DNA from: a bacterium
GTDB taxonomy: Bacteria > UBA8248
Length of the DNA stretch: 64,000 bases
Direction of reading: 5' to 3'
Assembly: GCA_965213625.1 (NCBI GenBank)
Contig: CBDBZU010000004.1
Span: 3,616,001 to 3,680,000 of the forward strand
Below, one piece after another: positions 10,664 through 42,823 of the stretch; positions within the stretch are counted from its first letter, which is position 1, and the number at the start of each line of letters is the position of its first letter. Made by a program: the position numbers and the translations under genes. The notes under the pieces were generated by a model, which saw only the letters and a list, made by a program, of their open reading frames with translations, was not told the DNA's origin and searched no databases.

Positions 10664-11128
10664 CTAAGATGTACCCGTTCTTTTTCTTTTGTTGGCGAAT
10701 TCCTCGAAATATCCTCCGATGGAGGAAGCAGCCCAGTCAAAGTCCATATCTTGGGCTTTTTGCAGCACTTCGTCTCCGCTCAGGTCTTCTTCCTCGGCCA
10801 GATGAATCAGCGAGCAAATCCCGGCTCGCCCTACGCCTTTTCAGTGTACGTACACCGGGCCATCTTTCCTGGCCTCGCTGAGCTTTTGGTGGATTTCCCC
10901 GGACAACTCGTCGCTGATGTTTGCTGCGTTCACGGGAATATGCACGAAGTTCATTCCCAATTCATGCGCCGCCTTGCTCTCTGCATCGGGCGGCAACTCC
11001 GGTTCTTCCTCATCGGCGAAACGCAAATTGACCAGGGTCTTGATCCCCTCATTCGCCAGCGATTCCATATCCTTCCGTCCCGGTTGTCTGCCGAACACGA
11101 GATTTTCAGCCAACTCAATATATTCCAT
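10664..11128 (-). CDS. DUF442/TIGR01244-type (PTP-like fold) sulfurtransferase, probable selenoprotein (UGA at 10841-10843)
   Basis: GRQP, GIKTLVNLR, FVHIPV, then PVYVH-UGA-KGVGRAG at the catalytic Cx4R loop; frame continues to TAG at 10664-10666; hairpin just downstream of the UGA. Confidence 0.8.
10810..10829 (-). promoter_or_regulatory. Candidate bacterial SECIS hairpin
   Basis: GCGAGC-CGGGAUUU-GCUCGC starting 11 nt after the UGA. Confidence 0.55.
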
Positions 11129-11151
11129 GCGCGTTTTCCTCTTTGCGAGTA

Positions 11152-11994
11152 TTACACCCGTTGCACCAGTTCTCGACAGCGAATCAGGCAGGTCGCCCTG
11201 TCATCTTCCCCGTCACGCTTATAAATTCCAAGCAGATTGTTGATCATTCTCTCCACGATTCGGCGGGGCGGGGTTTCCTGTAAAAACCGCATGTCGAAAT
11301 GGTATCCGAGTCCTCGCACAATCGCAGCGCAATCCCCCACGCTCAAGCGTTTTCCCCTCTCGAAGGGGTCTAAAAATATGGGTTCCTCATCTCCCTGGTA
11401 TTTGACGATAAAATGCCCCGGCATCCCGACCCCGTGAAAGGGAAGCCCCAGCCGATTGCCAAGTATCAAATACAAAGCGGAAAGCGATATGGGAATGCCC
11501 CGCCTTCGCTCCAGGACGCGATTCATAAAGCTGTTCTGCACATCATAATAATTCTCGCGAGCGCCATCGAAGCGAAGCTCTCCGTGCAAGTATTCCACGA
11601 CTTCATCGACAATGGCGTCGGCCGTGCGCATGCCATTCAGACGTCCGCGCAAATGGTTTTCCATACTCGTTAGTTCGCCTCTTTTCATCTCCATGTCTTC
11701 GAGGGGATGGCCAAAGGACGCCAACAAGAAACACGCAGCTTCCAAGTCCGCATCTTCCACCGTAGAAAGAGACCAGTCTGAAAAAGCCATTTCGATTTGG
11801 CTGTGATGGAATTCCTGAAGCGACAGCGGCAGTATCACCTCGCTCATCTCGCTCTTCTTCATTATGTCCAGAAGCCTTTTTTGTTCTTCGTCCGAAAATT
11901 CGGAAACCTGGCGGTCCAAAGCCGCCGTCATGCCTGGGGAATCATCACCCAACAAATGACAAATGGCTTCTAATTGTGAGTCACTCAACGACAA
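11152..11994 (-). CDS. SirB1-family transglutaminase-like domain protein
   Basis: F.G...NYYD..NSF...VLERRRGIPISLS, GVGMPGHF, FLDPF, RMINNL. Confidence 0.88.
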   Translation of the reverse strand: MSLSDSQLEAICHLLGDDSPGMTAALDRQVSEFSDEEQKRLLDIMKKSEMSEVILPLSLQEFHHSQIEMAFSDWSLSTVEDADLEAACFLLASFGHPLEDMEMKRGELTSMENHLRGRLNGMRTADAIVDEVVEYLHGELRFDGARENYYDVQNSFMNRVLERRRGIPISLSALYLILGNRLGLPFHGVGMPGHFIVKYQGDEEPIFLDPFERGKRLSVGDCAAIVRGLGYHFDMRFLQETPPRRIVERMINNLLGIYKRDGEDDRATCLIRCRELVQRV

Positions 11995-12099
11995 AATGGC
12001 ACTCCTTCATTCGTGGTCGTTCATTCCCTGGCGCCGCAATTCAAATATGGTATTATCATTCGGACTTATCCACAATTCGCGCTTAACGTGAGGGATCGA

Positions 12100-13725
12100 A
12101 TGTCGACGTATGCCGACGTAGTGGCGGAGGTTCTTCAAGACGCAGGCATCGAATTTATCTTTGGAGTTCCTGGAAGCTTGAGTTCCGTCGAACTCATTGA
12201 AGCTGCGAGAAAGCGGAACATTCGCTACATTCTTTGCAGCAACGAGAGCAGTGCGGCCGTGAAGGCGGGCACGTACGGCATCATGACGGGTCGACCGGGA
12301 GTCGTGAGCACGGGCGTCGGTCCAGGGGCTGCCGCCGTCCTCCACGGCGTGGCGAATAATTTTCTCGAACGCGCGCCATGCCTCATTTTGACTGACCGTT
12401 TTTCCGATGCTCAGTTCCACCGTGAGGGCCGGCAAAAACTCGATCAGGATCGGTTGCTGCGCCCCATCACGAAAGCCACCATCAAGCTCGCAAAAGACAA
12501 CGCCGCGGTAGCCATCAGGCGCGCGCTGGCCTTGGCCGTAGAGGGAAGGCCTGGTCCCGTGCATGTAGACCTCCCCTACGACGTAATGCTGGCAAGTGCT
12601 GAAGAAAACGATTTCCCCCCAAAGGATGCCCCTCAAAAATTTATCCGCCGCACCGGCTCGGCTCACCCTGGCATCGTCACAACTCTCAACGCAATCTCGG
12701 AGTCAACAAACCCGATTGTGATAGCAGGCCTCCAGGTAAACCGTTCGGGAAGAGAAGCCGAAAAGGAATTCGTATCTTTCACTGAAAAACTCGGAGCGCC
12801 TGTTCTCGCCGCACCTTCAGCCAAGGGCGTTTTGCCGGAAAACCATCCTCTCGCCATGGGCACCTTCCGGGGCGCACCCTCTGAGCGGGAATTGATAGAC
12901 AAGTCGGACCTGTTCGTTCTGGTAGGCTTCGACACGGTGGAAGTGTTCGCCCCCGGAAATTGGAACTATCCCCAGAAAGTGATAAATCTGGATGAAGTGC
13001 CGCATCTCAGTGATTTAATTCGGCCGGAAATTGAAGTCGTCGCTGATCTCGCCGATATCCTCAGAGAGTTGAGCGCCTCCGTCACCTCCAAGCATGCCTG
13101 GAACACCGAGGAGATGGATTCATATAAGAAAATGAGACAATCCGCATTGTTCCCCACTGGGGAAGGCTTGATGCCCGGCGCAGTCATCCGGATTGCGAGG
13201 GAATGTCTCCCCGACAACGGCATCATGACCGCCGATGCGGGAAGCCATAAAGTTTTGGCCAATGACATATGGGAGACGAGGCGCCCTCTGGGTTACCTGA
13301 CATCCAGCGGGCTGGGTTCGATGGCCGTCGCCACACCGGCCGCCATGGCCGCCAAATTAACCGAACCGGGCACGCCCGTTGTATGCCTCACTGGGGATGG
13401 AGGTTTTCTCATGCGGATTGGCGACATGGAAGTCGCCGTTCGAGAAAATATCCCCTTCGTTACTGTCGTATTCAATGACCGCTACCTGAACCTGATCAAA
13501 ATCAAACAAGACAACCGCTCTTTCCCGCGGCTTGGAACCGAATTTCGCGATTCCGACTATTCATCCGTGGCAAAGGGACTGGGCTGTGAGGGCGAGAGAG
13601 TTTCTACTGAAGAAGAATTGAAAAATGCGCTCAATCGTGCATTTACATCCGATAAACCCTGGGTAATCGACGCCGTTATAAATCCCGACGGCTATATGGC
13701 TTCAAAAGACGTCCGCGCAGAGTAA
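12100..13725 (+). CDS. Thiamine pyrophosphate-dependent enzyme (acetolactate synthase-like superfamily)
   Basis: IFGVPG, GPGA, GRPGPVHVDLP, GDGGF...N TPP motif. Confidence 0.9.
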   Translation: MSTYADVVAEVLQDAGIEFIFGVPGSLSSVELIEAARKRNIRYILCSNESSAAVKAGTYGIMTGRPGVVSTGVGPGAAAVLHGVANNFLERAPCLILTDRFSDAQFHREGRQKLDQDRLLRPITKATIKLAKDNAAVAIRRALALAVEGRPGPVHVDLPYDVMLASAEENDFPPKDAPQKFIRRTGSAHPGIVTTLNAISESTNPIVIAGLQVNRSGREAEKEFVSFTEKLGAPVLAAPSAKGVLPENHPLAMGTFRGAPSERELIDKSDLFVLVGFDTVEVFAPGNWNYPQKVINLDEVPHLSDLIRPEIEVVADLADILRELSASVTSKHAWNTEEMDSYKKMRQSALFPTGEGLMPGAVIRIARECLPDNGIMTADAGSHKVLANDIWETRRPLGYLTSSGLGSMAVATPAAMAAKLTEPGTPVVCLTGDGGFLMRIGDMEVAVRENIPFVTVVFNDRYLNLIKIKQDNRSFPRLGTEFRDSDYSSVAKGLGCEGERVSTEEELKNALNRAFTSDKPWVIDAVINPDGYMASKDVRAE

Positions 13726-13889
13726 TGAAAATTTTTTGCTTGACACAATCCTTTCAACAACGCATCTTATACAATATCGCTTTAAACTTGAGAGAGGGAG
13801 TTCGTTAATCCCTGTGATTCAGGCGTCCAGGCAGGGGCTGGGCTTTATGTCCTCGACCTCATGAGGGGTCTCGCGCGGGAGGATAGTAG

Positions 13890-14096
13890 GTGCCAGAAGG
13901 AACTGTAAAGTGGTTTAGCGATAAAAAGGGGTATGGTTTCATTTCTCGGGAAGATGGCGACGACATCTTCGTTCATTTTTCCGCCATCGTTGCGGATGGA
14001 TTCAAATCGCTGAAAGAAGGTGAAAAGGTTACATTCGAAATCACCCAAGGCCCCAAAGGGCTTCAGGCGGCGAATGTAACCAAACTGGAAGAATAA
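13890..14096 (+). CDS. Cold-shock protein (CspA family)
   Basis: [39 protein letters not shown]; GGAGG RBS and long 5' leader. Confidence 0.97.
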
Positions 14097-14134
14097 CTCT
14101 CCTCCCAATCATCGTATTTTTCATCGGGTATAAG

Positions 14135-15490
14135 CTATACGCTGGCCTCGGTATACTCTAAAACCGCCTTTGCAGCATTTTCTCCGCTTCTCACCGCACC
14201 TTCTACAGTTGCCGGCAGGCCCGTTCGAGTCCAGTCTCCAGCCAGAAAAAAACCTTCTATCGGTGTTTTCGTATCTATCCGGTATTTTTGTTCCGACACA
14301 CCGTTCGCCCAGGTAGCCGCGCGCTCCCGAACCACCAAAACATCTAGAATACGGTTACGGGGAATCATGTGATTCAGGCAATCTCGTGCAGACAACTCGA
14401 TGGCCGATCGTTCCTCAGATGCGATGGAATCGTCCGCCCCGGCCAACAGACACACCAGATTTTCCGCACCTTTTCCGCCAGCTTGCGGACGAAAAAGCCA
14501 ATCCCAGTCCTCGTTAACAATCGCTTCGAACGGAGGCCCCTCATTCGGTTCATCAAGCCAGCAATATGCGCTGGCGATAGGCCCTGGACATAGTTTTCCA
14601 AGATTGGAAAAAGGTAATTGTTCACCAAGATCCCCGCCCAGCAGTCTGGCAAAGGCATCGGGCGGCACCGCAGAAATTACTGCGGCAGCACGCAAGCACT
14701 CGTGTTTATTCAGAATTACACCGCTGATAATTGAATTTTTGACCTCAATACCTACTGCGGGTTGCTGAAGCCTAACCTCTCCTCCGAAGTGCCGGATGCG
14801 TTGAGCCGCTCTGTTCGCCCAAAGCGTACCCAAGGCCTTCATCGGCACTCCCAGGGCAGCACCCTCAGGCCCATCGGCGAAGGCCTCGCGTATCACGGTC
14901 TTGAAAAGTTCCGCACTCCCTTGATCCAAAGGCAAGTTCAGTACCGCACGCGCAAACGGCTCCCAGAACCAGCGCACCACCTCATCCTTCTGGCCAAGAC
15001 GCTCGAGCATCTCACTCATGGATTCATTCGGATTCTCATCACCAGATTTCGAAATAATCTTCGAAAGGCCTTTCAAAAGATTCACTTTCTCTCCAAAACG
15101 CGGCCCTCGCCATTTGAGCATGCCTCTAAGTTGCGCAAAAACCCCTCCGCCCTCTGGAAATGACAATTGCGTTCGTCTGGGTGACTCCGCTTCCCGAATA
15201 AGGTAACTCACCTCCAAGGAGGGAGAGAAAAATACATCATCAGCGGCGCCCACCCTTTCCAACAGTGCCCGCAAGGCCGGGTTCGCAGCCATGAATAAAT
15301 GTGGACCCCAATCCAACTCCAGGCCTGTGGATGAGTGCATGAAACTTCTTGCTCGACCTCCGAGAAGCTTTCCCGCCTCGAGCACGATAACTTTGACGCC
15401 CGACTCGGCAAGACGCAAGGCGGCGGAGAGGCCCGCTGCACCGGCCCCTATGATGATAACCGGCCTCTCGAAACCAACAAGCTCAGACAT
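14135..15490 (-). CDS. hpnE: Hydroxysqualene dehydroxylase HpnE
   Basis: GAGAAGL FAD motif, GGRARSF, RERAAT, LAGDWTRTGLPATVEGAVRSG; directly downstream of hpnCD. Confidence 0.88.
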   Translation of the reverse strand: MSELVGFERPVIIIGAGAAGLSAALRLAESGVKVIVLEAGKLLGGRARSFMHSSTGLELDWGPHLFMAANPALRALLERVGAADDVFFSPSLEVSYLIREAESPRRTQLSFPEGGGVFAQLRGMLKWRGPRFGEKVNLLKGLSKIISKSGDENPNESMSEMLERLGQKDEVVRWFWEPFARAVLNLPLDQGSAELFKTVIREAFADGPEGAALGVPMKALGTLWANRAAQRIRHFGGEVRLQQPAVGIEVKNSIISGVILNKHECLRAAAVISAVPPDAFARLLGGDLGEQLPFSNLGKLCPGPIASAYCWLDEPNEGPPFEAIVNEDWDWLFRPQAGGKGAENLVCLLAGADDSIASEERSAIELSARDCLNHMIPRNRILDVLVVRERAATWANGVSEQKYRIDTKTPIEGFFLAGDWTRTGLPATVEGAVRSGENAAKAVLEYTEASV

Positions 15491-17650
15491 TTACGCTTCC
15501 AGAAAACAGCGAAGCGCTTCTAGTAGTTTTTCCCTGGAATTCAGTGAGGGACGATAATCCATGTGCCGAAAATGATTCTGCTCCATCTCACTCAGAAGTC
15601 TACGATAAATCCGGCCCATGATTCTCGCGGGTAGAAGGTTCTCTTTTTTCTCGTGATTCAAGGCTTCGTTCGCCCCCTCATAGTAGTCACGCGCCCGATG
15701 CGCCAGATTTCCAAGGAGGCTCAATACTTGGGGGGAATCCGTTTTGTCTCTCAAATCAGAGTCCGTTACGCCATATTTTTCCATTTCGCCTTGAGGAAGA
15801 TAAATTCGCCCTTGTTCCGCATCCTCCCAAACGTCTCTTAAAATGTTCGTCATCTGTAACGCTCTTCCTAAACAAACGGCGTAGTCTTTCGCAAATTCCG
15901 ATTTCGCGCCGAAAATACTCAGGCACGCCAGCCCTACTGCGGATGCCACTTTGTCACAATAATTTTCAAGGTCTGTTAAATTTTCAATTCGCCGTTCTTC
16001 CAAATCCATCCCAACGCCATCACAAATCGCCCGGAGATGCTCCGGTGGCAGGTCGTATTTTCGTGACGCCCACGCAAGTTCCCCAATTATGGGATGAAGT
16101 TGAGACTCCTCGCCTAGCTGCTCCAATGCATTTTTCCATTCGCGCAACGAAGATTTCTTGTCTGATATTTCGCCCGGCTCATCGGCGATGTCGTCAGCCA
16201 TGCGGCAATATGCATAAACCGCCGTGATAGCGCGTCTTTTCTCCGCAGGCAGACTGAAGAAAGACAGATAAAAATTCGACCGGCTCGCGCGAATGAACCA
16301 GCGGCAGTATGCGCGGTTCAACGCATTTTCTGCCTGTCGATCCACATTGGATTCGAGTCGATAGACCGGCCGAAACGCCGCGAACAACGTTTTGGCCTTA
16401 TCCCAACCATTCAAATGCGGAGACCCCGCGCAGACGTCCCAATTCTGACGGGAAATGGAATCCAATGCCGCGATGCCGCCACGCCAAATCGCACGAAGCT
16501 CACGGCCCAGCGCGCCGCGGGTACGGTACAAAAGAGGCAGGCCCTGCCTGAAGAGACGCTTCGTCCTTTTTATTTGGAAGACCAGGAACGCGCGCAATTG
16601 AGGCGTCGCCACGTCTGCGAGTAAATCATCCTCGGAGACGGCGAACCGTTTCATTTCATCCTGCGGCATGTAGACGATGCCGCGTTCGGCATCTTCTTTC
16701 ACGTCTTGTAAATGATTCGCAATCTGCAAGGCCGTACAGATAGCATCTGACGCGTGAAGGGCCTCTTCATCACGAATCCCGTGCAACATGAGAACGATTC
16801 TTCCGACGGGATCCGCCGAGCGGCGACAATAATCGAGCAAGGCTTCATAGTTCGGGTACCGGAGAACGGTGACATCTTGTTTGAATGCCGAAAGCAAATC
16901 CAGAAAAGGCTGTAAGGGCAAATTGAATTGTTGAATCGTGTGAGAAAGAGCTATGAAAACATCAGTTTCCGCGACTCCCATCTGGGCTAATACGAGTTTA
17001 TCTTCCCATTCGTCGAGTCGGGCGATGCGCTCATGGGCGGGTCTTGTCGTATCCGCGATGTCATCGGCGCCTCTGGCAAATGCGTAGACCGCAGCAACAT
17101 GCGGCCTAATTTTCGCCGGCAACAATTTAGAAGCGACGGGAAAATTCTCGTAGTGGCCGACTACGATTTTCATACACGTATCATAGGCGGCGCTTAATTC
17201 TGCCATTGAAACTTTCTTTACCTCTTTGCCTGAATCCCGTGATTCTTCGCCATTCATTAGAGTTTCTATCAATTGTGCATCCGCAGGCAAAAAATCAAAA
17301 TCACCCAATGAGGCAGGATGCACCCACTCATGCCCCGCCACTCCCAAATTCTTAACCACTCCGCTTGCCCACTCACAATCATAAAATCGTAGATGGATTT
17401 CTCTGTCTGGATAGCTGTGGCATGTCTCCCAATGAAGACGGCCAACGCGCACTGCGATGCCTAGTTCCTCGCATATCTCACGTTGTAAGGCTTCCCGATC
17501 GTTCTCCCCTTCCTCTATTTTGCCACCGGGAAACTCCCAGAAACCTGGCATGTGACCGCCCGCAGGACGCTGGCAAATGAGAATGCGCCCTTCGTTCCAG
17601 ACAATTCCAGCGACGACGCTCAGTTCCAAGATCGAAACTTCGTCCTCCAT
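15491..17650 (-). CDS. NUDIX (MutT-like)-HpnC-HpnD triple fusion, squalene synthesis
   Basis: Nudix box GGKIEEGENDREALQREICEELG; HpnC HYENFPVAS..YAFARGADDIAD, YCRRSADPVGR; HpnD SNFYLSF..YAYCRMADDIAD, ALQMTNILRDV; no internal stop. Confidence 0.85.
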   Translation of the reverse strand: MEDEVSILELSVVAGIVWNEGRILICQRPAGGHMPGFWEFPGGKIEEGENDREALQREICEELGIAVRVGRLHWETCHSYPDREIHLRFYDCEWASGVVKNLGVAGHEWVHPASLGDFDFLPADAQLIETLMNGEESRDSGKEVKKVSMAELSAAYDTCMKIVVGHYENFPVASKLLPAKIRPHVAAVYAFARGADDIADTTRPAHERIARLDEWEDKLVLAQMGVAETDVFIALSHTIQQFNLPLQPFLDLLSAFKQDVTVLRYPNYEALLDYCRRSADPVGRIVLMLHGIRDEEALHASDAICTALQIANHLQDVKEDAERGIVYMPQDEMKRFAVSEDDLLADVATPQLRAFLVFQIKRTKRLFRQGLPLLYRTRGALGRELRAIWRGGIAALDSISRQNWDVCAGSPHLNGWDKAKTLFAAFRPVYRLESNVDRQAENALNRAYCRWFIRASRSNFYLSFFSLPAEKRRAITAVYAYCRMADDIADEPGEISDKKSSLREWKNALEQLGEESQLHPIIGELAWASRKYDLPPEHLRAICDGVGMDLEERRIENLTDLENYCDKVASAVGLACLSIFGAKSEFAKDYAVCLGRALQMTNILRDVWEDAEQGRIYLPQGEMEKYGVTDSDLRDKTDSPQVLSLLGNLAHRARDYYEGANEALNHEKKENLLPARIMGRIYRRLLSEMEQNHFRHMDYRPSLNSREKLLEALRCFLEA

Positions 17651-17665
17651 CTCTTCTCCAAGTGT

Positions 17666-18463
17666 TCAACCCTGTGCAGCTTCAGGTTCCGTATGTCCAG
17701 GTAATCGTCTCAGGACACTTGAAAACACAATGGGTTCCGCAAGGGGCAACGCATCGGCCAGTTCTTTTTCATCCGCAAAAAACTCGCCCGGCAGGACCAA
17801 CCCCGGCATTCGCAGTCTGATCGAATCCTCTGAAAACGGCCACGGGAATATTTCCAGATCATCCATGTTGGCTGTCTTCACTTGCAAACCGCTTTGCGTC
17901 AAGGGATGGACGGCGTCATCGGGCGGGGTGATTTCCGGCGCCCGGCACGCCAACAGGGATAACGTATCGCAAACCCTGAGCAAAGACACTGAATTTTCAA
18001 TCGCATCTTTATGCTCCGGTTCAATGAGGACGTCCAGCTTTTTCTGCCGCTTCGATTCAGCGTGAATGAAGTCGTTCAACACCCTGGAAACTTCAAGTGG
18101 GGCACCCCTTCTCCCCCCTTCGGCGAGCGAAGAGAAGTGAATACTGACAAGACAACCCGTAAATGGATGAAAAGATGCGCAGGAATCAATTCCCTCCGAC
18201 CATATCTCCACCGCCTTGTCCGCTGTTATGCCGAAAAAACTATACGGCAGTTTCGTCAGCGCATCCCACCTCGGTGTGGCGTCCGGTCGGCACCACCCGA
18301 CGTCATGGTTATCGACGGCGAACAAAACTTTCTCTCTGAGCTCATACGGCGGTGAGGGAAGCGATTCTATCCCTATCCAATTTCGCGCAATCGTGCCCGC
18401 GGCCCGGGCGTGGTCATGTTGACTGATAAGGCGAACATGGTTATCTCGCGGACAAACTATCAT
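17666..18463 (-). CDS. DUF3891-like family protein
   Basis: MIV.....LISQHDHARAAG..A..W, HDVGW, S.HF, CDTLSL..C, PWPF pattern. Confidence 0.7.
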   Translation of the reverse strand: MIVCPRDNHVRLISQHDHARAAGTIARNWIGIESLPSPPYELREKVLFAVDNHDVGWCRPDATPRWDALTKLPYSFFGITADKAVEIWSEGIDSCASFHPFTGCLVSIHFSSLAEGGRRGAPLEVSRVLNDFIHAESKRQKKLDVLIEPEHKDAIENSVSLLRVCDTLSLLACRAPEITPPDDAVHPLTQSGLQVKTANMDDLEIFPWPFSEDSIRLRMPGLVLPGEFFADEKELADALPLAEPIVFSSVLRRLPGHTEPEAAQG

Positions 18464-18694
18464 TTGAAACACCAAAAAATGGCGGAGTATACAGTCCCAA
18501 TCCGTTGAATCTCCAAGTCCATGACCTGGAGGTATTTTATTTCGCCGATGAAAAATGTAACAACCGTCATTGCAGCAAACAAGAGAAAAACAAGTAAATT
18601 CAACATCCACTTGAACAAACGTGTGCAAAACACATAATTTTGCTACAAGTCAGTATATATTCTTGTCTTGGAAATAAGGAAATCGCGCCAAATC

Positions 18695-20131
18695 ATGAAT
18701 CAAAAAAATTCCCCGCAAGAACCTGGTTCTGTCGGCCTCACGAAAACGCGGACGATCGCCCTCCCCGAGCCGTTTCGGACCGATTCCGATGAAACATTAC
18801 CCCAAGTCCATGTTGCCTATGAAACATATGGTAAACTCTCTCCCGGCGCCGATAACGCCGTTTTGGTCATCCACGCGCTCACGGGCGACGCGCACGCAGC
18901 CGGCTACCATAGCCCCGACGACCCGCGCCCGGGCTGGTGGGACCCGATGATAGGCCCGGGCAAAGCCATCGATACACGAAAATATTTTGTCGTCTCCTCG
19001 AACAACCTAGGGGGATGTTCTGGCACCACGGGGCCCGCTTCGATCAATTCCGCTACGGGCAGAGCCTACAACACCGCTTTTCCCGTCACCACGGTGGAAG
19101 ATACCGTTCGCGTCCAAAAAATGCTTCTCGACCATCTGGGCGTGAAACGCCTCAAAACGGTCATAGGCGGCTCGCTCGCCGGGATGCAAACCCTCGAATG
19201 GGGCCTGCGCTACAGCGATTTTTGCGATTCCGTCATACCGGTCGCCGGAGCCGCGCGCCTGGACCCGATGGGAATCGCATGGGACAAAATCGCTCGCAGG
19301 GCCATCACTGCCGACGGCGACTGGAAAGACGGCAACTACGCCGCTGGAGAAGGACCACGCAAAGGTCTAAGCGCGGCGCGCATGCTGGCCCACATCACCT
19401 ACCTGAGCCGAGGGATCATGTGGGAGAAATTCGGCCGCGAGATCAGGGACAAGGGAAAAATGCTGGACGACATCACCTCGCGCTTCGAGGTGGAGAGCTA
19501 TCTCGATCACCAGGGAGACAAATTCGTCGATCGTTTCGACGCCAATTCGTATCTGTACATATCCCGGATGATGGACTTGTACGACGCCTCTATGGGTTAT
19601 GAGAGTCTCGAAGCGTCACTGTCCCGGTTGAAAACAAAATGCCTGCTCGTCTGCTTCATATCCGATTGGCTCTTCCCGCCGGAAAGAAGTATGGAGATCG
19701 CCCAAATTCTCCAAATACTCGACCATGAGGTGGAATTGCACACGGTGGAGTCCACCTACGGGCACGATGCTTTTCTGGTCCAATACGACAAGCTCACCGA
19801 AATCGTGGGTGGTTTTCTCAGAAGACTTGATGCCGGGGGACCAATCGGCATCAACGCGGCACCCATACCCCGAGGCTGCAAGCGGCTTGTCCTCTCTTAT
19901 CCAGGTCATCTCGTGCAGAAACCCATTTTGTGGGAACTCGGCCGAAAATACTCGTTTTCCATCAACATCATGAGGAGTGAGCTGGATGCCCAATCGGGGT
20001 GGCAGGTTTGTGAATTCGATGGAAACGAGGAGGAAATCACACAAGCAGTCACTGAACTCCGCAATATGGGAGTGTGGGTAGACCCCGGAGGGCATGACGC
20101 CATCGACCACGACCGCGCCGAAGTGGTATAA
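18695..20131 (+). CDS. metX: Homoserine O-acetyltransferase with C-terminal NIL domain
   Basis: AYETYG, HALTGDAH, GWWD.MIGPG, GGSLAGMQ, RFDANSY, SDWLFPP, GHDAFL; C-terminal ~75 aa resemble a NIL domain. Confidence 0.92.
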   Translation: MNQKNSPQEPGSVGLTKTRTIALPEPFRTDSDETLPQVHVAYETYGKLSPGADNAVLVIHALTGDAHAAGYHSPDDPRPGWWDPMIGPGKAIDTRKYFVVSSNNLGGCSGTTGPASINSATGRAYNTAFPVTTVEDTVRVQKMLLDHLGVKRLKTVIGGSLAGMQTLEWGLRYSDFCDSVIPVAGAARLDPMGIAWDKIARRAITADGDWKDGNYAAGEGPRKGLSAARMLAHITYLSRGIMWEKFGREIRDKGKMLDDITSRFEVESYLDHQGDKFVDRFDANSYLYISRMMDLYDASMGYESLEASLSRLKTKCLLVCFISDWLFPPERSMEIAQILQILDHEVELHTVESTYGHDAFLVQYDKLTEIVGGFLRRLDAGGPIGINAAPIPRGCKRLVLSYPGHLVQKPILWELGRKYSFSINIMRSELDAQSGWQVCEFDGNEEEITQAVTELRNMGVWVDPGGHDAIDHDRAEVV

Positions 20132-20207
20132 ACCGGAAAATTGCTGCCTGGATAAAAGTTCACCGATATTCTTCAGAAATTCGTTAGAAACCAGACGGAG
20201 GCACGCC

Positions 20208-20840
20208 ATGAGCAAGTTGAAAGAACCAATCGTTGTGGTGAAATACTCGGACTACACATGACCGTTTTGCTATGTCGCCACCGTTGGTGGCACGCCCGTG
20301 ATTGAAGAAGACCCCGATGTCGTCGTCGAGTGGGTCAGTTGGGAGGGGAGACCACCCGGCCAGGAGTTCGCCGGTTACTCGCCCGAGCAGAAAAAAGAAA
20401 GTTACGAAAATAACCACAAACCTCTCGCAGAGAAATACAACGTGCCCATCCGTGTGGCGGGGGGCGACTACCGCACCACCAACCTGCACATGGCCACCTA
20501 TTACGCCCGCGATAAGGGAAAGTTCAAGGAATTCCGGAATCGCTGCTACAAGGCCCGCTGGGAGGACGACCTGAATCTCGAAGATTTGGACGTCATCGCC
20601 GGGCTCGCCGAAGACGTCGGCTTGGACGGCGAGGAAATCAAGGCCGTCATCTCCGAGGGACGCTACATCGGCGCACTCCACAGCCAGCGCGCCCAGGGAA
20701 AAGGCCTGGGTATTTTCGGAATCCCCACGTTCGTGGTTGAAGGAAAGCTCTTCTGGGGCAAAGACGTCATCGACGACGTCAAGGCGGAGGTCGCGCGCGT
20801 GAAGCAAGAACGGATCGAGAAGGAGAAACAGGAGAACTAG
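20208..20840 (+). CDS. DsbA/FrnE-family thioredoxin-fold protein, probable selenoprotein (UxxC, UGA at 20259-20261)
   Basis: GGAGG RBS then MSKLKEPIVVVKYSDYT-UGA-PFCY in frame with the 20298..20840 ORF; GIFGIPTF cis-Pro motif. Confidence 0.88.
20274..20293 (+). promoter_or_regulatory. Candidate bacterial SECIS hairpin
   Basis: GU-C-GCCACC-GUU-GGUGGC-AC; the G-starting loop begins 21 nt after the UGA. Confidence 0.6.
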
Positions 20841-30734: not shown

Positions 30735-30747
30735 ATTTCAGCTCAGA

Positions 30748-32777: not shown

Positions 32778-32886
32778 AACTCCTCCAAATCATCAAGAAG
32801 AATTCTCATCGAAAGTGAGTGTATATTCCTTGGTTATCCTCTCGTGCTCGTAGTGTCAACTTCTAATCCGGATGGCTCTCAGATCT

Positions 32887-34554: not shown

Positions 34555-34568
34555 GATTCCTCCGAATA

Positions 34569-35258: not shown

Positions 35259-35378
35259 GCGCAATTTCCTGTCTATGACCGCTCGGATGAGCTGTTCTGC
35301 GAAAAACCGCATAATAGGGTATTCTAGCGGTTCGGCAAAGGCGAAATGTGTGTTTTTCTCAACCCAAAGGAGCGGACG

Positions 35379-36179: not shown

Positions 36180-36196
36180 CTCATAAGGAGAACCCC

Positions 36197-36598: not shown

Positions 36599-36657
36599 GT
36601 TGTCAGTTGTTCATGCTATAATTCGGAGAGAGACCCATCAAACAAGGAGGATGCCTC

Positions 36658-36972
36658 ATGGCCGTTACCGCAGTTGTCCGCTTCCCGTTTCCAGAAGTGA
36701 AAACCGAGGAGGAGCTGATCGCGTCTTTCGAGAGTTCCTCGGCTCTCTACCACGGTGTGCCCGGCCTCTTGCGCAAATACTATCTGATGTCCGAAGACCG
36801 GATGTCAGGGGGCGGGGTCTATATTTTCGAGTCACGCGCCGACGCCGAGCGTGTCCACGACGAGGTGTGGCGCAACAGGCTGATCGAACGCATGGGCGTC
36901 GAGCCCGACGTCCAGTACTTCGACTCGCCCGTCATCGTCGACAACGAAGCCAGGGCCGCCACCACCGCATAA
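36658..36972 (+). CDS. YdhR-like dimeric alpha/beta barrel protein (copy 1)
   Basis: VPGLLRKYYL, GGGVYIFESRADAE, F.SPVIVDN; AGGAGG RBS. Confidence 0.85.
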   Translation: MAVTAVVRFPFPEVKTEEELIASFESSSALYHGVPGLLRKYYLMSEDRMSGGGVYIFESRADAERVHDEVWRNRLIERMGVEPDVQYFDSPVIVDNEARAATTA

Positions 36973-36983
36973 GGAGGACGTTC

Positions 36984-37301
36984 ATGGCCGTCACCGCAAT
37001 CGTTCGCTTCACGCTTCCCGAGGGAAAGACCCAAGAGGAGATGGCCGCGGCCTTCGAACACTCGGCCCCTCTCTACCGCGACGTACCGGGGCTGGTGCGA
37101 AAATACTACCTGGTGTCGGACGACGTTCGCACCGGAGGCGGGGTCTACCTGTTCGAGTCGCGCGAGGATGCCGAGCGGCTCTACGACGACGCCTGGCGCG
37201 CCGGGATACGCGAGCGCCTGGGAGTCGAACCCACGATCGAATTCTTCACCTCGCCGGTAATCGTGGACAACGAAGTCGGAGCGATATCGACCGCTTCTTG
37301 A
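36984..37301 (+). CDS. YdhR-like dimeric alpha/beta barrel protein (copy 2)
   Basis: AAGGAGG RBS then MAVTAIVRF; VPGLVRKYYL, GGGVYLFESREDAE. Confidence 0.85.
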   Translation: MAVTAIVRFTLPEGKTQEEMAAAFEHSAPLYRDVPGLVRKYYLVSDDVRTGGGVYLFESREDAERLYDDAWRAGIRERLGVEPTIEFFTSPVIVDNEVGAISTAS

Positions 37302-37401
37302 CCCCTAGGCGATTCGCGCTCTTTTCCTAGCTCGCCCAGGGGAGGAGATACGTTCGTTCACATTCCAATGATGGAATGTCCAATTAAAGCCGGGAGGTCG
37401 T

Positions 37402-37980
37402 ATGTTCCGGGCGAATGCGCTGATGCTCTACCTCGTCTTCCTGGTGTTCGCCGTGGGCGGGAAAATTGGTCTTCACTACCTGGCCACCGGAGAATTCGGC
37501 ATTCGCACGGTGAAACGGGATGCTCCCCAAAAAGCCAAATTCGCAAGCATCCTCCTGATGACATCATTCATCGGGACGTTCGTTGTTTCTCTCCTCGATG
37601 CCGCCGAAACGATTCAGCCACAAGTCGAACTTGGCGGGTCCATAAACACGACCGGCGCAGCAATATCTCTGGCCGGAATCGCCATCATGGTAATCGCCCA
37701 ATATCAGATGGGAAGCGCATGGAGGTTCGGCGTCGATCAATACGAGAAAACCGATTTGGTGACGGGGGGCTTCTACTCTCTCGTCAGGAACCCTATCTAC
37801 AGCGGTGTGTTCCTGTTCTTAATCGGCCTTCTGGTGTTGCTGCCCCACATATCGATGCTGTTATTCATCGCCATGGCTTGTTTAAGCATCGAGATGCAGG
37901 TGCGCTTCGTCGAAGAGCCGCATCTTCGTGACCTACACGGCGCCGCTTATAAAGATTACACCGAGCAGACGGGCCGCTAA
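37402..37980 (+). CDS. Isoprenylcysteine carboxyl methyltransferase/PEMT-family membrane protein
   Basis: MG.AWR.G, LVTGG.YS.VRNPIY, EEP.L...HG..Y..Y; stop may be slightly premature. Confidence 0.85.
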   Translation: MFRANALMLYLVFLVFAVGGKIGLHYLATGEFGIRTVKRDAPQKAKFASILLMTSFIGTFVVSLLDAAETIQPQVELGGSINTTGAAISLAGIAIMVIAQYQMGSAWRFGVDQYEKTDLVTGGFYSLVRNPIYSGVFLFLIGLLVLLPHISMLLFIAMACLSIEMQVRFVEEPHLRDLHGAAYKDYTEQTGR

Positions 37981-38024
37981 TTCCCAAGGCTTCTACGCAA
38001 ATTCAGTCGATAGGGGAAAATAAC

Positions 38025-38840
38025 TCAACCCACGAGGGCCTCGAGTCGCGCGCAGATATCAGGAGGAAGCGCGCCGCCGCCCGATGCCGCCGCGTTCTCG
38101 CTCATGCGGCCCGCCCTGCCGGTGGCGGGGATGACGCTGGAGACCCTCTCGTCCGCGAGTAGGTATTTCAGGAGCGCCTGCCCCGGCGTTCCTGAATGAT
38201 GGGCTTTCAGTTCCGGCATGCGGGCGATACTGCCTCCGGGACCAAGCAGGCCGCTCTTCAAGTGACTGAAAGGCCGCATGACGATAACGCCCAGGTTCAT
38301 CCGCTGCGCCAGGGGCAGAACCTCCTCGCGGCACTGCACCTCGCCCAGATAGTAGGGTATCTGGATCGCGTCGTAGGCGTCCGTCTTCATGGCTTCGATG
38401 AGTTCGGGGAAATTCTCGGGCCTCCTGTCGGTGATTCCCAGATGACGTATTCTGCCCTCTTCCTGATACGCCTTCATTACGGGCGTCACCTCGCGCCAGC
38501 CCGCCATGTTGTGAATCTGTAAGAGGTCGATGACGTCCGTGCGAAGGTGTCTGAAGGAGCGCTCGATGCTCGCGCGGGCCGCCGATGCGCTCGACTCCCA
38601 CACCTTGGTCGCCAGGACGATCTTCTCCCTGGCGCCTTCCAGCGCCTCACCCAGCACCCGCTCGGAATCCCCGTATATCGGCGCGGTGTCGAAAAAATTG
38701 ACCCCGCAATCCAGGCATTCCCGGACGATTTCGACGCACCGGGCGGGTTCGCTGCTCGCCATGTGCATGAAATTGTGCGAAGTGCCCAGGCCGATTTCGC
38801 TTACCTGCAATTCGGTCCGGCCGAGACGGCGATGGTTCAT
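38025..38840 (-). CDS. Aldo/keto reductase
   Basis: RRLGRT.L.VS.IGLG, FDTAPIYG, LATK, IDLLQIH. Confidence 0.92.
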   Translation of the reverse strand: MNHRRLGRTELQVSEIGLGTSHNFMHMASSEPARCVEIVRECLDCGVNFFDTAPIYGDSERVLGEALEGAREKIVLATKVWESSASAARASIERSFRHLRTDVIDLLQIHNMAGWREVTPVMKAYQEEGRIRHLGITDRRPENFPELIEAMKTDAYDAIQIPYYLGEVQCREEVLPLAQRMNLGVIVMRPFSHLKSGLLGPGGSIARMPELKAHHSGTPGQALLKYLLADERVSSVIPATGRAGRMSENAAASGGGALPPDICARLEALVG

Positions 38841-38877
38841 GTGCTCACTCCAGTTGAAGGTCTATGTCTTTCGCGCT

Positions 38878-39561
38878 TTAACCCGCCGCTCTCGCCAGAA
38901 TCTCGCGGTAGCCCTCATACACCGCCTCCCCGTAGGCGGGCGGGGCGTGGACTTCGGTGAGCTTGCCGTCCTCAATCGTCTTATCCGAAGCGTAGGGATT
39001 GAAGACGGCCTCCCCGTTCGGGAAGATGAGGGTGGGGCTGGTCATCGACATGCCCTCTTCGTCCCTCAAGCGCATGGCTTCCCTGTAGTCATCCATCACG
39101 CCCTCCTCGTATGCGCCGGATTCCAAATCCGCGCGCACTTTGGCGCCATCGAGGCCCGCTTCTTCCGCCATATCGCACAAAACCGCGTCCTCATCCACGC
39201 GTTTTCCCTCGTAGAAAAAACCGCGCCTGATCGCAAGATCGTAGACGCGCGCCTTTTCGGGGTCCAGCGCGTAGGCGCTCGCATAGGCCTGGAAGGCGCG
39301 GATGGTTGTCCTCAGGTATTCCTCGTGCGGCCAGCTTCTGCACGGCGAGAGCGGTTCCTGAACGGCTATCAGGGGCCATTCCTGGTCCACGATGTAGCGC
39401 GGCGCCGGGCGGTCGTTGATGACCTCCAGCGGAAACGCGCGCCATTTAAGCTGCAGCTTGTCCTCGAACTCAGGCATCACCTTGTCCAACCGCGCCGCGG
39501 CCATGTACGCCCAGGGTCAGTGGTATTCGTGAAAAATCTCGACAACCGCCGTTTCCGCCAT
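38878..39561 (-). CDS. DsbA/FrnE-family thioredoxin-fold protein, probable selenoprotein (UGA at 39517-39519)
   Basis: GAGGAG RBS then MAETAVVEIFHEYH-UGA-PWAY, in frame with ORF 38878..39504; matches DxxCPWxY; WRAFPLE, SPTL. Confidence 0.85.
39487..39503 (-). promoter_or_regulatory. Candidate bacterial SECIS hairpin
   Basis: UGGCCGC-GGC-GCGGUUG (with G-U pairs); the G-starting loop begins 20 nt after the UGA. Confidence 0.5.
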
Positions 39562-39731
39562 CTCATCTCCTCACTCGAAAAAAGTCTTATGATGAAATCA
39601 GGACAGAGAGCGTCCCCTACCCGATGATTTACACCCCGGATTCATCAAGGGCAAGTTGTTTCCTATGCTCCATGCCTCATGTACTCGATAAAAGCTGTGG
39701 TATCATGCCGAAAATTTTGGAGACCGCAGGA

Positions 39732-40148
39732 ATGAACCCTGAGGATCAGACACTCGCCTCCATACTCGCAGGCGCCGAGACCATCGCCGTGGTCGGTCTT
39801 TCGGACAATCCCTCGCGCACGAGCCACCGAATCGCCTCATATATGCAGGAGGCGGGCTACCAGGTCATTCCCATAAATCCCGGAATAAAATCCGCCCTCG
39901 GCGAGATGGCCTATCCCAGCCTGGGTGAAGTTACCGAGCGTATCGACATCGTGAACGCCTTCAGGCGATCCGAGGAAATACCCGCCCTGGTGGATGACGC
40001 CATCGAAAAACGCCCGCGAGCGTTCTGGATGCAAAAGGGCATCACCCACCCCGGCTCCGCGCGCCGCCTGGAGGATGCAGGCATCACCACGATTCAGAAC
40101 CTCTGCATCAAGACCGCTCACCGGAAACTCGCGCAAACCCCTCGATGA
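39732..40148 (+). CDS. CoA-binding protein (YccU-like)
   Basis: TIAVVGLSDNP.R.S, VIPINP, AYPSL, IDIV..FR, WMQ.G, NLC; start uncertain (39705 possible). Confidence 0.9.
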   Translation: MNPEDQTLASILAGAETIAVVGLSDNPSRTSHRIASYMQEAGYQVIPINPGIKSALGEMAYPSLGEVTERIDIVNAFRRSEEIPALVDDAIEKRPRAFWMQKGITHPGSARRLEDAGITTIQNLCIKTAHRKLAQTPR

Positions 40149-40158
40149 GAATGGGCCG

Positions 40159-40992
40159 CTGCGAATCTCGCAAAAACTCCATCGCTACCTGCTCCTCGGC
40201 GCAGGCGCTTTGTTGGTCGTGGGAATGTTTGGGTTTTTAGAGAATTTCCTGCTTTATCATCCCTACCGGGAAATCGAGGTCACGCCCAAAGCCTATCGAA
40301 TAGCGTATGAGGACGTCTCCTTCAGTGCAGAGGACGGCGTGCGCCTTCACGGCTGGTACGTTGCTCCCAAAGACCCTGACGGTCCGGTACTCCTGTGGAC
40401 GCACGGCAACGCGGGCAACCTCTCACACCGTGCGGAGAACATCGCGCTCATCCAGAAAGAACTGGGGGCGGGCGTGTTCATCTTCGACTACCGGGGATAC
40501 GGCAAGAGTGAGGGTCGACCTAGCGAGGAAGGTCTCTATGCCGACGGCAGGGCCGCGTACGCCTGGCTCGCCGAGCGCGTGCCGCACGAGCGTATTTTTC
40601 TCTTCGGACGCTCCCTGGGCGCCGCCGTAGTAGTGAAACTCGCCGCGGAAGGAAAGAAAGCGCGCGGCCTCATCCTGGAGAGTCCCTTCGAGAGCACTCT
40701 CGCCATGGGCAAGAAGATGTTCCCTTTCCTGCCTGTGGGATGGCTCATCTCCCCGAAATTCGACAGCGCGGCCATGATACCCAAAGTGAAGATGCCCCTG
40801 TTCGTTCTGCATGGGGATAAGGACGGAATCGTCCCCTACGCGCAGGGGCTACGGCTCTTCGAGACTGCCGGCTCTCCGCACAAGCGATTTTTCACCATCA
40901 AGGGTGCGGGCCACAACGACACGTATTACGCGGGGGGTGCGCCCTACTGGGAGGCGTGGCGGGATTTTTTGGAAAAACCCGAGTCAGGGTGA
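40159..40992 (+). CDS. Alpha/beta hydrolase (Bem46/ABHD13-like)
   Basis: LHGWY, HGNAGN, DYRGYGKSEG.PSE.G, GRSLG, HG..D.IVP, GAGHND; start uncertain. Confidence 0.88.
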   Translation: MRISQKLHRYLLLGAGALLVVGMFGFLENFLLYHPYREIEVTPKAYRIAYEDVSFSAEDGVRLHGWYVAPKDPDGPVLLWTHGNAGNLSHRAENIALIQKELGAGVFIFDYRGYGKSEGRPSEEGLYADGRAAYAWLAERVPHERIFLFGRSLGAAVVVKLAAEGKKARGLILESPFESTLAMGKKMFPFLPVGWLISPKFDSAAMIPKVKMPLFVLHGDKDGIVPYAQGLRLFETAGSPHKRFFTIKGAGHNDTYYAGGAPYWEAWRDFLEKPESG

Positions 40993-41790
40993 ATCGGGAG
41001 TCGGGTTCGTCTTCCTGGCCCTGCGCCTCGCCCGGAACTCCTGCAGCAGCCTTTCGTGATGTACGCTCGTGAAGAAACTCTTAACGAACGAATCCGCCGG
41101 ATGGTTGATGAGGTTCTCCGGCGTATCGACCTGGACGATAACGCCGTCGCGCATCACGGCGATTCTGTCGGCAATCTGAAACGCATCCGTCAAATCGTGC
41201 GTCACCAGCAGGCTGATCGCCCCGATCTCGTCGTGCACTCTCCTCAATTCTTTTCGGACCTCCAGCCTGGCGACCGGATCGATGTTCGCCAGTGGCTCAT
41301 CGAGAAGAAAAACCTGCGGGGGGATGGCGATGGCGCGGCCGATGGCAACTTTCTGCTGCTGGCCCGCGCTCAAGCTGTCCGGACTGCGGCGGGACCATTT
41401 TGGGTTGATCCCCAAACGCCGCATCACGTCCTGGGCGCGCTCGTTCAGGATGCCCGGCAGCCAGCGGCGGATTTTAAGCGCGAAGCTTAGGTTCGAGTAT
41501 TTTTTCTCATCGAAAACCTTCATGTGCGGCCAAAGGGCATAACTCTGGAAAACGAGCTGCACCCCGCGCCTACCGGGCGGGATGCCGTTCAGCCGCACGC
41601 CGTCCAAATAGATGTGACCCGCATCCTCATCTTCCACGCCGGCGATCAGGCGCAAGAGCGTCGATTTGCCGCAACCCGTGGGACCGACGAGCACCATGAA
41701 TTCCCTGTCATCCAGCGCAAGGGACAGGTTGTCGACCGCGCACACGTCGTCGAAATCTTTCTTGAGTCCCGTAATCGTCAGACGGCTCAT
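40984..41790 (-). CDS. ABC transporter ATP-binding protein (MalK-like)
   Basis: GPTGCGKST, FQSYALWPH, LSAGQQQ, LLDEP, VTHD. Confidence 0.9.
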   Translation of the reverse strand: MSRLTITGLKKDFDDVCAVDNLSLALDDREFMVLVGPTGCGKSTLLRLIAGVEDEDAGHIYLDGVRLNGIPPGRRGVQLVFQSYALWPHMKVFDEKKYSNLSFALKIRRWLPGILNERAQDVMRRLGINPKWSRRSPDSLSAGQQQKVAIGRAIAIPPQVFLLDEPLANIDPVARLEVRKELRRVHDEIGAISLLVTHDLTDAFQIADRIAVMRDGVIVQVDTPENLINHPADSFVKSFFTSVHHERLLQEFRARRRARKTNPTPDSP

Positions 41791-41807
41791 GCCTCTCTCC
41801 GGCCCAT

Positions 41808-42164
41808 TCAATTTTCAAGCGCGAGTTTGTTCAGCGCCTCCATGCCCGGCGTGAAGATTTCCTCCAGCACGAGCGGCCCATCGCCCGCGTTTCGCGTGGA
41901 GTGCTCCTGGTTCGGCGGAAAAATCACGACGCCGCCGGGACCGAGCTCCACTTCCTTCCCGCCGCACGCGAACCTCGCCCGTCCTTCGAGCACGATCGTC
42001 ATCTGCTCGTTCGGGTGCGAATGGGGGTTGTACATGTCCACACCTGCGCGAATCGTCTGGCGAAGTACTGTCAGGCTCTCGCCCGCCACTACGCGTTGAA
42101 TCCTCTCGCCGGTATCGTGCGCTGCCATCTCCTCGAAATGATAGTGTTTCACGCTTTTCTCCAC
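41808..42164 (-). CDS. Cupin domain protein
   Basis: PHSHPNEQ, PPNQEH, EIFTP. Confidence 0.85.
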   Translation of the reverse strand: MEKSVKHYHFEEMAAHDTGERIQRVVAGESLTVLRQTIRAGVDMYNPHSHPNEQMTIVLEGRARFACGGKEVELGPGGVVIFPPNQEHSTRNAGDGPLVLEEIFTPGMEALNKLALEN

Positions 42165-42298
42165 CTGAATGGATGAAACTTTACGAAAAATTTAAGCTCC
42201 GCTGCGGGAACCGCCTGATTCATCGTATATAAGTATTTGCATCGGCTCAAACCTTCTCCTAAAGTGTTCACAGGCCGTATTTATCTTAGGAGACCACC

Positions 42299-42823
42299 AT
42301 GAAGCGAACCCTCATATGCATCATCGCCATCGCATTGATCGCCGCGTTCTGGACCTTTCACCAGGCGGGCGCATCGGGACTCGGACCCGGCGCGCAAGCG
42401 CCTGAGCTCAAGGGCGGGCCCTGGATTGGCGGCGAGCCCGTCAAGCTCGAAGAATTGCGCGGCAAGGTCGTTCTCCTCGACATGTGGACGTTCGCCTGAA
42501 TCAATTGCGTGCGGGAGATCCCCACGCTGCGTTCGTGGCACGAGCGCTATGAAGACAAGGGGCTGGTCATCATCGGGAACCATGCGCCCGAGTTCAACTT
42601 CGACAGGAAAAAAGAAAACATCGAAGAGGCAATGGCCAAGCTCGGCATCAAGTACCGCGTCGTGATGGACAATGACTTCAAGAACTGGGACGCCTTTCAG
42701 AATCGCTTCTGGCCGACGAAATACCTGATCGACAAAAAGGGTATCGTGCGTTTCAAGACGATCGGTGAGGGCAACCACGAGCGCACCGAGGCGATGATCA
42801 TGAAGCTGCTCGCCGAAAAATAA
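42299..42823 (+). CDS. Exported TlpA/DipZ-like thioredoxin, probable selenoprotein (UxxC, UGA at 42497-42499)
   Basis: Signal peptide, LRGKVVLLDMWTFA-UGA-INC continuing in frame to H.PEF, WP.KYLIDK.G, GEG; joins ORFs 42299..42499 and 42509..42823. Confidence 0.92.
42507..42527 (+). promoter_or_regulatory. Candidate bacterial SECIS hairpin
   Basis: GCGUG-C-GGG-AGAU-CCC-CACGC; the loop begins 16 nt after the UGA. Confidence 0.6.

Follow-up and report, generated by a model that had tools for sequence, protein, structure and literature searches.

Four In-Frame TGA Codons in 64 kb of a UBA8248 Genome: Probable Selenoprotein Genes, One of Them Apparently of an Uncatalogued Family

Introduction

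When a TGA codon stands in the middle of an otherwise ordinary bacterial gene, exactly where a catalytic cysteine is expected, is it a stop, a defect, or a codon for selenocysteine (Sec, U)? The question is raised by a 64-kb stretch of bacterial DNA, called here the window, which covers positions 3616001–3680000 of contig C4 in a 4.15-Mb assembly of four contigs (completeness 96.6%, contamination 5.2%) and in which an earlier note had pointed to four such codons. With high confidence, we take the four TGAs to encode selenocysteine by the decoding mechanism usual in bacteria. Three of the genes that contain them (genes 2, 3, and 4) are members of known selenoprotein families, gene 3 as a motif variant, whereas gene 1 seems to represent a Sec family absent from the catalogues, with the protein tyrosine phosphatase (PTP)/DUF442 fold, a worthwhile although incremental addition to a published list of 119 families. 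Coordinates below are those of the window unless they are preceded by C4.

Four Reading Frames across TGA

Gene 1 (10664–11128, minus strand, 154 residues) has its TGA at 10841–10843, which corresponds to Sec96 in the motif VHUKGVGR. In gene 2 (20208–20840, plus strand, 210 residues) the codon lies at 20259–20261 and gives Sec18 in DYTUPFC; gene 3 (38878–39561, minus strand, 227 residues) has it at 39517–39519, as Sec15 in EYHUPWAY, and gene 4 (42299–42823, plus strand, 174 residues) at 42497–42499, as Sec67 in FAUINC. The coordinates and motifs of the earlier note are exact in all four cases. Reading TGA as U yields four unbroken open reading frames (ORFs) with ordinary starts, and its further claim of a frame that stays open to a normal C-terminus agrees with what was found, since the four ORFs run to TAG or TAA and have coding signal on both sides of the codon. 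Hexamer log-odds, from a coding model trained on the long ORFs of the genome, are positive upstream and downstream of all four TGAs (0.34–0.91 per codon). When the window was scanned mechanically for TGA read-through, 14 candidates emerged, among which these four genes are the only survivors; each of the 10 others overlaps a better-scoring gene in another frame.

Conservation of the TGA Codons

Each read-through protein was searched against 61 related genomes, and 32 loci per gene, namely the 12 closest and 20 picked as divergent, were aligned for column analysis. The Sec column holds U in 32 of 32 loci for gene 1 and likewise for gene 3, in the latter case down to 27% identity. For gene 4, 27 loci have U and five have Cys, the Cys homologs carrying C-I-N-C, and for gene 2 the column contains 29 U, one Cys, and two Ser, the Ser forms being two degenerate SQNS copies of 28–29% identity. 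Homologs have, therefore, Cys or TGA at the aligned position with these two DsbA-like copies as sole exceptions, and the proposal that each TGA replaces the catalytic Cys of its family is upheld, with the precision that the loop of gene 1 is C-x4-R, of DUF442 type, and not the classical C-x5-R.

The complete sets of matches give the same picture. For gene 1, TGA is found in 53 of 54 among the matches listed, and the gene is present in 31 of the 61 genomes, all of the same taxonomic family as the window; across 51 genomes of the phylum the family occurs in 36, with TGA in 57 of 60 matches, the three others being two fragments and one weak partial hit. Gene 2 has TGA in every match of at least 36% identity that covers residue 18, from genus to class level, and gene 3 in every match that covers the active site, again from genus to class and down to 23% identity. 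The best 40 matches of gene 4 (at least 51% identity) all have TGA, and the next four, from other phyla and with 40–51% identity, are without a stop. Neighbouring codons diverge across genus, family, and class while TGA stays. Moreover, the region 3′ of the codon is itself conserved; in gene 1, for instance, W132 is invariant and A125 nearly so.

Selenocysteine Machinery and Ordinary Use of TGA

The check for the selA, selB, selC, and selD genes that the earlier note had proposed gave a positive answer: the genome holds selA, selB, selD, and a tRNA-Sec, all above curated cut-offs. The selA and selB genes are adjacent at C4:180953–185165 (564 and 388 bits), selD scores 333 bits and carries one in-frame TGA itself, and the tRNA-Sec scores 75.9 bits, with the anticodon tca according to ARAGORN. 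At the same time TGA is the commonest ordinary stop of this genome, ending 1433 of 3044 stop-to-stop frames of at least 300 codons, so that TGA has not been reassigned genome-wide.

Hairpins Downstream of the TGA Codons

The bSECISearch program is said to look for a stem-loop that lies in the coding region immediately 3′ of the UGA and whose apical loop, some 16–37 nucleotides downstream, contains a G. The four hairpins have this arrangement, and their pairing is kept across relatives. In genes 1 to 4, the loops begin 17, 21, 20, and 16 nucleotides after the TGA, with a G within the first two loop bases in every case, and the stems begin after 10, 15, 15, and 7 nucleotides; of the geometry claimed earlier, the loop distance of 16–21 nucleotides was thus recovered, whereas the stem distance of 7–13 nucleotides was too narrow for genes 2 and 3.

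The hairpin of gene 1 (10809–10830, minus strand) consists of a 7-bp stem, GGCGAGC/GCUCGCU, and the loop CGGGAUUU. In 28 distinct sequences, 18 of its 22 columns are invariant, and the sole variable stem position switches from A-U to G-U in 13 of the 28. The third positions of the codons GGG, GCC, GGG, TGC, and TCG never vary, in a family with two paralog groups about 40% identical. In gene 2 the hairpin (20277–20291, plus strand; GCCACC/GUU/GGUGGC) has a core pair, 22–30, with a compensatory exchange: 23 sequences have A-U there, and three have C-G. That of gene 3 (39489–39501, minus strand; GCCGC/GGC/GCGGU) shows compensatory changes at pair 22–28, which is G-C in 18 sequences, U-A in five, and A-U in one. 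The hairpin of gene 4 (42507–42527, plus strand; GCGUG-C-GGG/AGAU/CCC-CACGC) folds with −24.5 kcal/mol over a 60-nucleotide stretch, as against only −3.8 kcal/mol for the same stretch of a Cys-form homolog; its pair 15–27 is G-C in five and C-G in four of 11 family-level orthologs. When folding energies are compared with those of shuffled sequence, gene 4 is the only one that stands out (z = −3.06).

Stop, Standard Amino Acid, or Selenocysteine

Several points weigh against decoding as selenocysteine and have to be set beside this evidence. The hairpins of genes 1–3 are no stabler than shuffled sequence (z from −0.25 to +0.99), and since a single hairpin does not rise above chance, the weight rests on the comparative data. 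In the gene 1 hairpin, none of the seven pairs has a double compensatory change among the 28 sequences, and the nucleotide conservation there could be partly of protein origin, because the hairpin overlaps the conserved peptide GRAGxCS. Furthermore, the presence of selenium in the four products, as well as every biochemical role proposed below, is something we infer, in the former case from sequence. This last point leaves some room for UGA being read through as Cys, Trp, or another standard residue, and insertion of cysteine at Sec codons under selenium shortage has been reported for other organisms. Against such decoding stand the full Sec machinery of the genome, the placement of the hairpins at the distance of a selenocysteine insertion sequence (SECIS) element, and some 40 more genes that show the same pattern and belong to known families such as GrdA, GrdB, SelD, UGSC, and OsmC-like proteins; we consider it very improbable.

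Even less credit can be given to the view that the TGAs are true stops, be it in pseudogenes, through assembly errors, or at the ends of genuinely short or split proteins. Public gene callers do predict such truncated products for genes 1 and 3, and TGA is, as said, the stop that this genome uses most. Nevertheless, the codon recurs in dozens of independent genomes, over a range of 27–98% protein identity, with the downstream frame open and conserved, and the truncated products would be without the catalytic residue. Conservation of the protein also beyond the TGA rules out, in our opinion, a sequencing error, a pseudogene, or real termination. A contig from another run, about 92% identical, adds little to this argument: none of 40 listed differences, out of 439, falls on a TGA.

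Decoding as selenocysteine would proceed by SelB, loaded with Sec-tRNA(Sec), binding the intragenic hairpin immediately 3′ of the UGA, so that Sec would be inserted and termination avoided. The products would be four separate redox or sulfur-handling proteins in each of which Sec replaces the nucleophilic Cys.

Gene 1, a Probable Selenocysteine Protein of the PTP/DUF442 Fold

The Sec of gene 1 stands in the context VH-U-KGVG-R-AGICSL, that is, H-U-x4-R. Two Pfam models match above their cut-offs, PF22741 (DSP-PTPase) with 36.6 bits and PF04273 (DUF442/BLH) with 33.5 bits for a cut-off of 26.1, and no selenoprotein model was matched in the NCBIfam search. A profile of 20 family members finds the DUF442 structure 2f46 of the PDB at 1e-9 and aligns its Sec column to the Cys in YCRTGTR. 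In a search of 1.84 billion representative proteins, this profile retrieved 7438 relatives at E ≤0.001. Alignment of 20 of the best-scoring hits, 146–197 residues long, shows Cys at the Sec column in 20 of these 20 public full-length homologs, and H-C-x4-R is invariant. One of these Cys forms, P0030, is 45% identical to gene 1 and also has a GRAGVCS stretch. Classical PTPs carry the signature H-C-x5-R. The gene 1 family departs from it, with four residues between Sec or Cys and Arg in 22 of 22 aligned members.

The AlphaFold2 model of gene 1 has a mean predicted local distance difference test (pLDDT) score of 93.4 and places Sec96 at the end of strand 92–96, before helix 100–113. By fold it comes closest to the DUF442 structures 3gxh and 2f46, followed by archaeal Tk-PTP, SsoPTP, and dual-specificity phosphatases with template modeling (TM) scores of 0.72–0.78. 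Another cysteine, Cys105, lies nine residues past the Sec; it is invariant in the Sec forms, and among the Cys forms only P0030 has it. Possible reasons are a role as resolving Cys and a constraint imposed by the hairpin.

What could such a protein do? Among DUF442 domains, only that of Xylella Blh has been measured, with thiosulfate:cyanide and thiosulfate:glutathione sulfur-transferase activities as the outcome (PMC5823870). Owing to the structural kinship with DUF442, to this activity of Blh, and to a loop one residue shorter than C-x5-R, we favour, with some reserve, a sulfur (or selenium) transferase as the probable role of gene 1, which would carry or transfer sulfane sulfur, or selenium, via an Se-S(H) intermediate in the manner of the Blh domain. 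As an unlikely rival we consider a Sec-dependent phosphatase, acting on proteins or phosphoinositides, or else an arsenate reductase. Its chemistry is made conceivable by scores below the NCBIfam cut-offs (51.3 versus 85.85 for TIGR01244 and 63.6 versus 625 for the Blh sulfur-transferase domain) together with a best Pfam model, PF22741, that is named after phosphatases; the fold matches to Tk-PTP, SsoPTP, and the dual-specificity phosphatases go the same way, and the loop with its invariant His-Sec and Arg is similar to one that binds phosphate. On the other side, the C-x4-R spacing of all 22 members is one residue short for a phosphatase, the nearest kin in both sequence and structure is DUF442, one domain of which has a measured sulfur-transferase activity, and the conserved neighbour of the gene 1 paralog is a peroxidase-type OsmC selenoprotein.

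With DUF442/TIGR01244 proteins (Blh; 2f46 and 3gxh), gene 1 shares a PTP-like fold, a C-x4-R loop with the Sec on the catalytic Cys, and a size of about 150 residues, and both gene 1 and 2f46 have Cys-Ser-Leu after the loop. It differs from them in having Sec for Cys, in standing alone without a dioxygenase domain, in scoring below the NCBIfam cut-offs, and, with respect to 2f46, in an extra A-G-I/V between the Arg and Cys-Ser-Leu. The rhodanese-type selenoproteins (PF00581, forms 1–5; PMC13188914) are alike in that the active-site Cys of a sulfur transferase is replaced by Sec, but the two folds, rhodanese and PTP-like, are unrelated.

Has a selenoprotein of this kind been catalogued before? 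A review of 2022 gives a table of 87 selenoprotein families that it calls a complete list (PMC9312934), and a review of 2026 has one of 119 families (PMC13188914). Among the latter are two DsbA-like forms (form 1, UxxC; form 2, DxxUP), Prx-like thiol:disulfide oxidoreductase, Redoxin, TlpA-type proteins, and rhodaneses in five forms. Both tables lack DUF442, TIGR01244, PF04273, PF22741, Blh, and any phosphatase, and the words "phosphatase" and "sulfur transferase" do not occur in the main text of the BSepDB paper. We found no publication linking selenocysteine with DUF442, TIGR01244, PF04273, or PF22741, with the proviso that the supplements of the reviews or of BSepDB might list the family. 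On balance, we incline to the view that gene 1 and its paralog form an uncatalogued selenoprotein family and are the first PTP/DUF442-fold proteins with Sec in the active-site loop. Among the genomes searched, the Sec family is found only in one family of a small phylum (labelled Nitrospinota/Tectomicrobia), and all full-length copies have TGA.

The surroundings of gene 1 were compared by scanning one genome per species, in 185,579 species, for the peptide GRAG[IV]CSLxH. This yielded 43 loci, in which the named records of metagenome-assembled genomes are Nitrospinota, Nitrospinaceae, or Candidatus Tectomicrobia; because the pattern is narrow, it says nothing on other lineages. Directly upstream of the gene there is a transglutaminase-like gene in 24 loci, an OsmC-like selenoprotein in 18, and neither within the flank in one. 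In the window it is the former, a Transglut_core2 gene (11152–11994, minus strand; Pfam 146.7 bits) directly upstream of gene 1. The other arrangement is seen elsewhere in the same genome, where an OsmC-like selenoprotein gene (C4:315499–316056, plus strand; motif GF-U-LLT) ends 26 nucleotides before the gene 1 paralog (C4:316083–316526, plus strand), a tandem pair kept in 18 of the 43 loci.

If the assignment is right, the gene 1 family would use selenium to carry sulfane sulfur, or would carry selenium itself, and it would extend the use of selenocysteine to a fold without a catalogued case. Besides, the public Cys form with 45% identity offers a natural Sec/Cys pair in which to ask what selenium adds to a C-x4-R sulfur-transfer loop.

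Genes 2 and 3, DsbA-Like Proteins

Gene 2 matches Pfam DSBA with 99.5 bits and has the active site U-P-F-C. With this motif and its SECIS-like hairpin it fits form 1 of the DsbA-like selenoproteins (PF01323, UxxC; PMC9312934, PMC13188914), and it would be a cytoplasmic DsbA/FrnE-like oxidoreductase working through U-x-x-C.

Gene 3 is also DsbA/FrnE-like (Pfam DSBA, 53.2 bits), and in alignment its U falls on the first Cys of the CPWC motif of FrnE (5cnw) and SCO1869 (3gl5). It has the domain and the Sec position of form 1, but its active site is U-P-W-A, without a second Cys, in place of UxxC, and thus it matches neither of the catalogued DsbA-like forms, UxxC or DxxUP. No resolving Cys is found in the motif in 25 loci of at least 44% identity, remoter paralogs having UPWC or UPYA. 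Since Ala replaces the second Cys in the orthologs, gene 3 would need to act as a single selenol, presumably together with an external thiol. A gene 3 paralog, also without the second Cys, lies about 6 kb before the window (C4:3609138–3609848, minus strand; NCYV-U-PYAY), and another DsbA-like TGA gene, at C4:2987957–2988487, has the motif UPWC.

Gene 4, a Secreted ResA/TlpA-Like Redoxin

Gene 4 matches Pfam AhpC-TSA (51.7 bits) and Redoxin (38.6 bits), has the active site U-I-N-C, and reaches 68.6 bits with the NCBIfam ResA model, which is under the cut-off. Its N-terminus is a hydrophobic, signal-like segment. By its AhpC-TSA domain and UINC motif it is akin to the catalogued Prx-like thiol:disulfide oxidoreductase, Redoxin, and TlpA selenoproteins (PF00578, PF08534, cd02966; UxxC), from which it differs in the signal-like N-terminus and in standing before genes for a cytochrome b561 and a molybdopterin oxidoreductase. 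These are a cytochrome b561-like gene (42823–43812, plus strand; Pfam Ni_hydr_CYTB, 66.7 bits) and, after a 94-residue ORF (43812–44096, plus strand), a molybdopterin oxidoreductase gene (44093–44911, plus strand; Pfam Oxidored_molyb, 97.6 bits). From gene 4 through 44911, the stops and starts overlap or abut, and the four genes probably form an operon. We take the layout of gene 4, cytochrome b561-like protein, and molybdopterin oxidoreductase to recall the MsrPQ-type systems of periplasmic (envelope) repair. The product of gene 4 would be a secreted ResA/TlpA-like reductase with U-x-x-C, and its place before a cytochrome b and a molybdoenzyme suggests that it serves in maintaining the redox state of the envelope.

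Public Annotation

The earlier note had foreseen that standard annotation would truncate these genes, and this holds for genes 1 and 3, the two that were tested. All 26 public gene 1 proteins are 84–95 residues long, cover at most 62% of the query, and end at the TGA; one of these fragments is named "sulfur transferase domain-containing protein". The 63 public gene 3 proteins, named "hypothetical" or "DsbA family", all cover at most 92% of the query, and most of them, including 28 of the best 30, have 208 residues. To judge from their length, these 208-residue products are consistent with ORFs that start at Met20, past the active site. With active sites lost from the public versions of genes 1 and 3, dozens of redox enzymes escape functional and metabolic reconstructions of these uncultured bacteria. 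For genes 2–4, the correction of annotation is all that is new.

Selenoprotein Content of the Genome

The suggestion of a very selenoprotein-rich organism is supported at the scale of the genome. A scan with four filters, namely coding signal upstream and downstream of TGA, competition between frames, a crude rule for hairpins, and clustering of paralogs, followed by Pfam, led to about 44 candidate selenoprotein genes in 4.15 Mb. This number is an estimate, because the scan gave false positives and missed three known cases, namely selD, the gene 1 paralog, and one DsbA-like gene. The expected number at that density is about 0.7 per 64-kb window, so the four found here are a mild local excess.

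The largest group is formed by 12 candidates of AhpD/CMD-like CxxU type (a cluster of 11 plus one), followed by five OsmC-like genes, four DsbA-like genes, and four of GrdB type (one GrdB and three that resemble its C-terminal part). There are three deiodinase/Prx-like and three UGSC genes, two double rhodaneses, two genes of gene 1 type, and one each of GrdA, SelD, gene 4, thioredoxin, DsrE-like, Prx, DUF3179, Grx-DinB, and a CoA-transferase-like gene. Seven of the 11 members of the CMD cluster were put to Pfam, and six matched CMD at E ≤0.001. Conservation of the TGA was checked for the four families of the window and the CoA-transferase-like gene; the other candidates rest on family, motif, and hairpin. 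Four further candidates (L224–L227) match no family and were left out of the count.

Besides gene 1, the coenzyme A (CoA) transferase-like gene (C4:3346739–3347575, plus strand) may be a second uncatalogued selenoprotein family. Its Pfam CoA_trans match of 73.9 bits spans the site, the TGA being codon 106 (TEHA-U-ASVLAG). The codon is kept in 23 matches of 65–100% identity, while paralogs of at most 53% identity are without the stop; a paralog in the same genome has Cys at the TGA column, and a strong hairpin lies 3′ of the TGA. Neither "CoA transferase" nor PF01144 appears in the text of the 2026 catalogue (PMC13188914). Should both families be real, catalogues built by homology to known families would still overlook selenoproteins restricted to a lineage, even where genomes are richest in them.

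The BSepDB paper lists in its Table 2 three UBA8248 genomes, with Nitrospinota, Nitrospinaceae, and Nitrospinae labels, that have 54, 50, and 48 selenoprotein genes and are among the ten richest bacteria. The genome of the window probably belongs to this published selenoprotein-rich lineage. Counts based on homology, such as those 48–54 in similarly labelled genomes, are in our opinion probably underestimates.

Full-length genes for GrdB (C4:3273139–3274452, minus strand; 397 bits) and GrdA (C4:3275846–3276295, minus strand; 206 bits) lie about 1.4 kb apart and, therefore, imply a reductase of glycine/betaine type in a genome with Nitrospinota-labelled relatives.

Other Observations

The three GrdB-C-terminal-like TGA genes are found elsewhere in the genome. 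The 11 paralogous AhpD/CMD-like C-x-x-U genes, for example those at C4:372958–373596 and C4:2409920–2410519, are an unusually large expansion of one family.

Two frames of the window were rejected as selenoproteins after closer consideration. The frame at 15491–18718 (minus strand) comprises separate genes and not one read-through ORF: within 15491–18628, a single frame holds an ORF of some 320 codons that scores very low for coding potential, a TGA, and then a region that we take, by eye, to be a NUDIX-like segment and two tandem repeats resembling squalene/phytoene synthases. The frame at 54637–56175 (plus strand) is an ORF of 482 residues (54637–56085), presumably a transposase to judge by eye, plus a tail of 30 residues.

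In the genome scan, two TraL junctions and a holB/PSP1 junction turned out to be adjacent genes and not read-through. The two TraL loci, at C4:3445751–3446338 and C4:4097479–4098078, are near-identical, which suggests two copies of a conjugative element.

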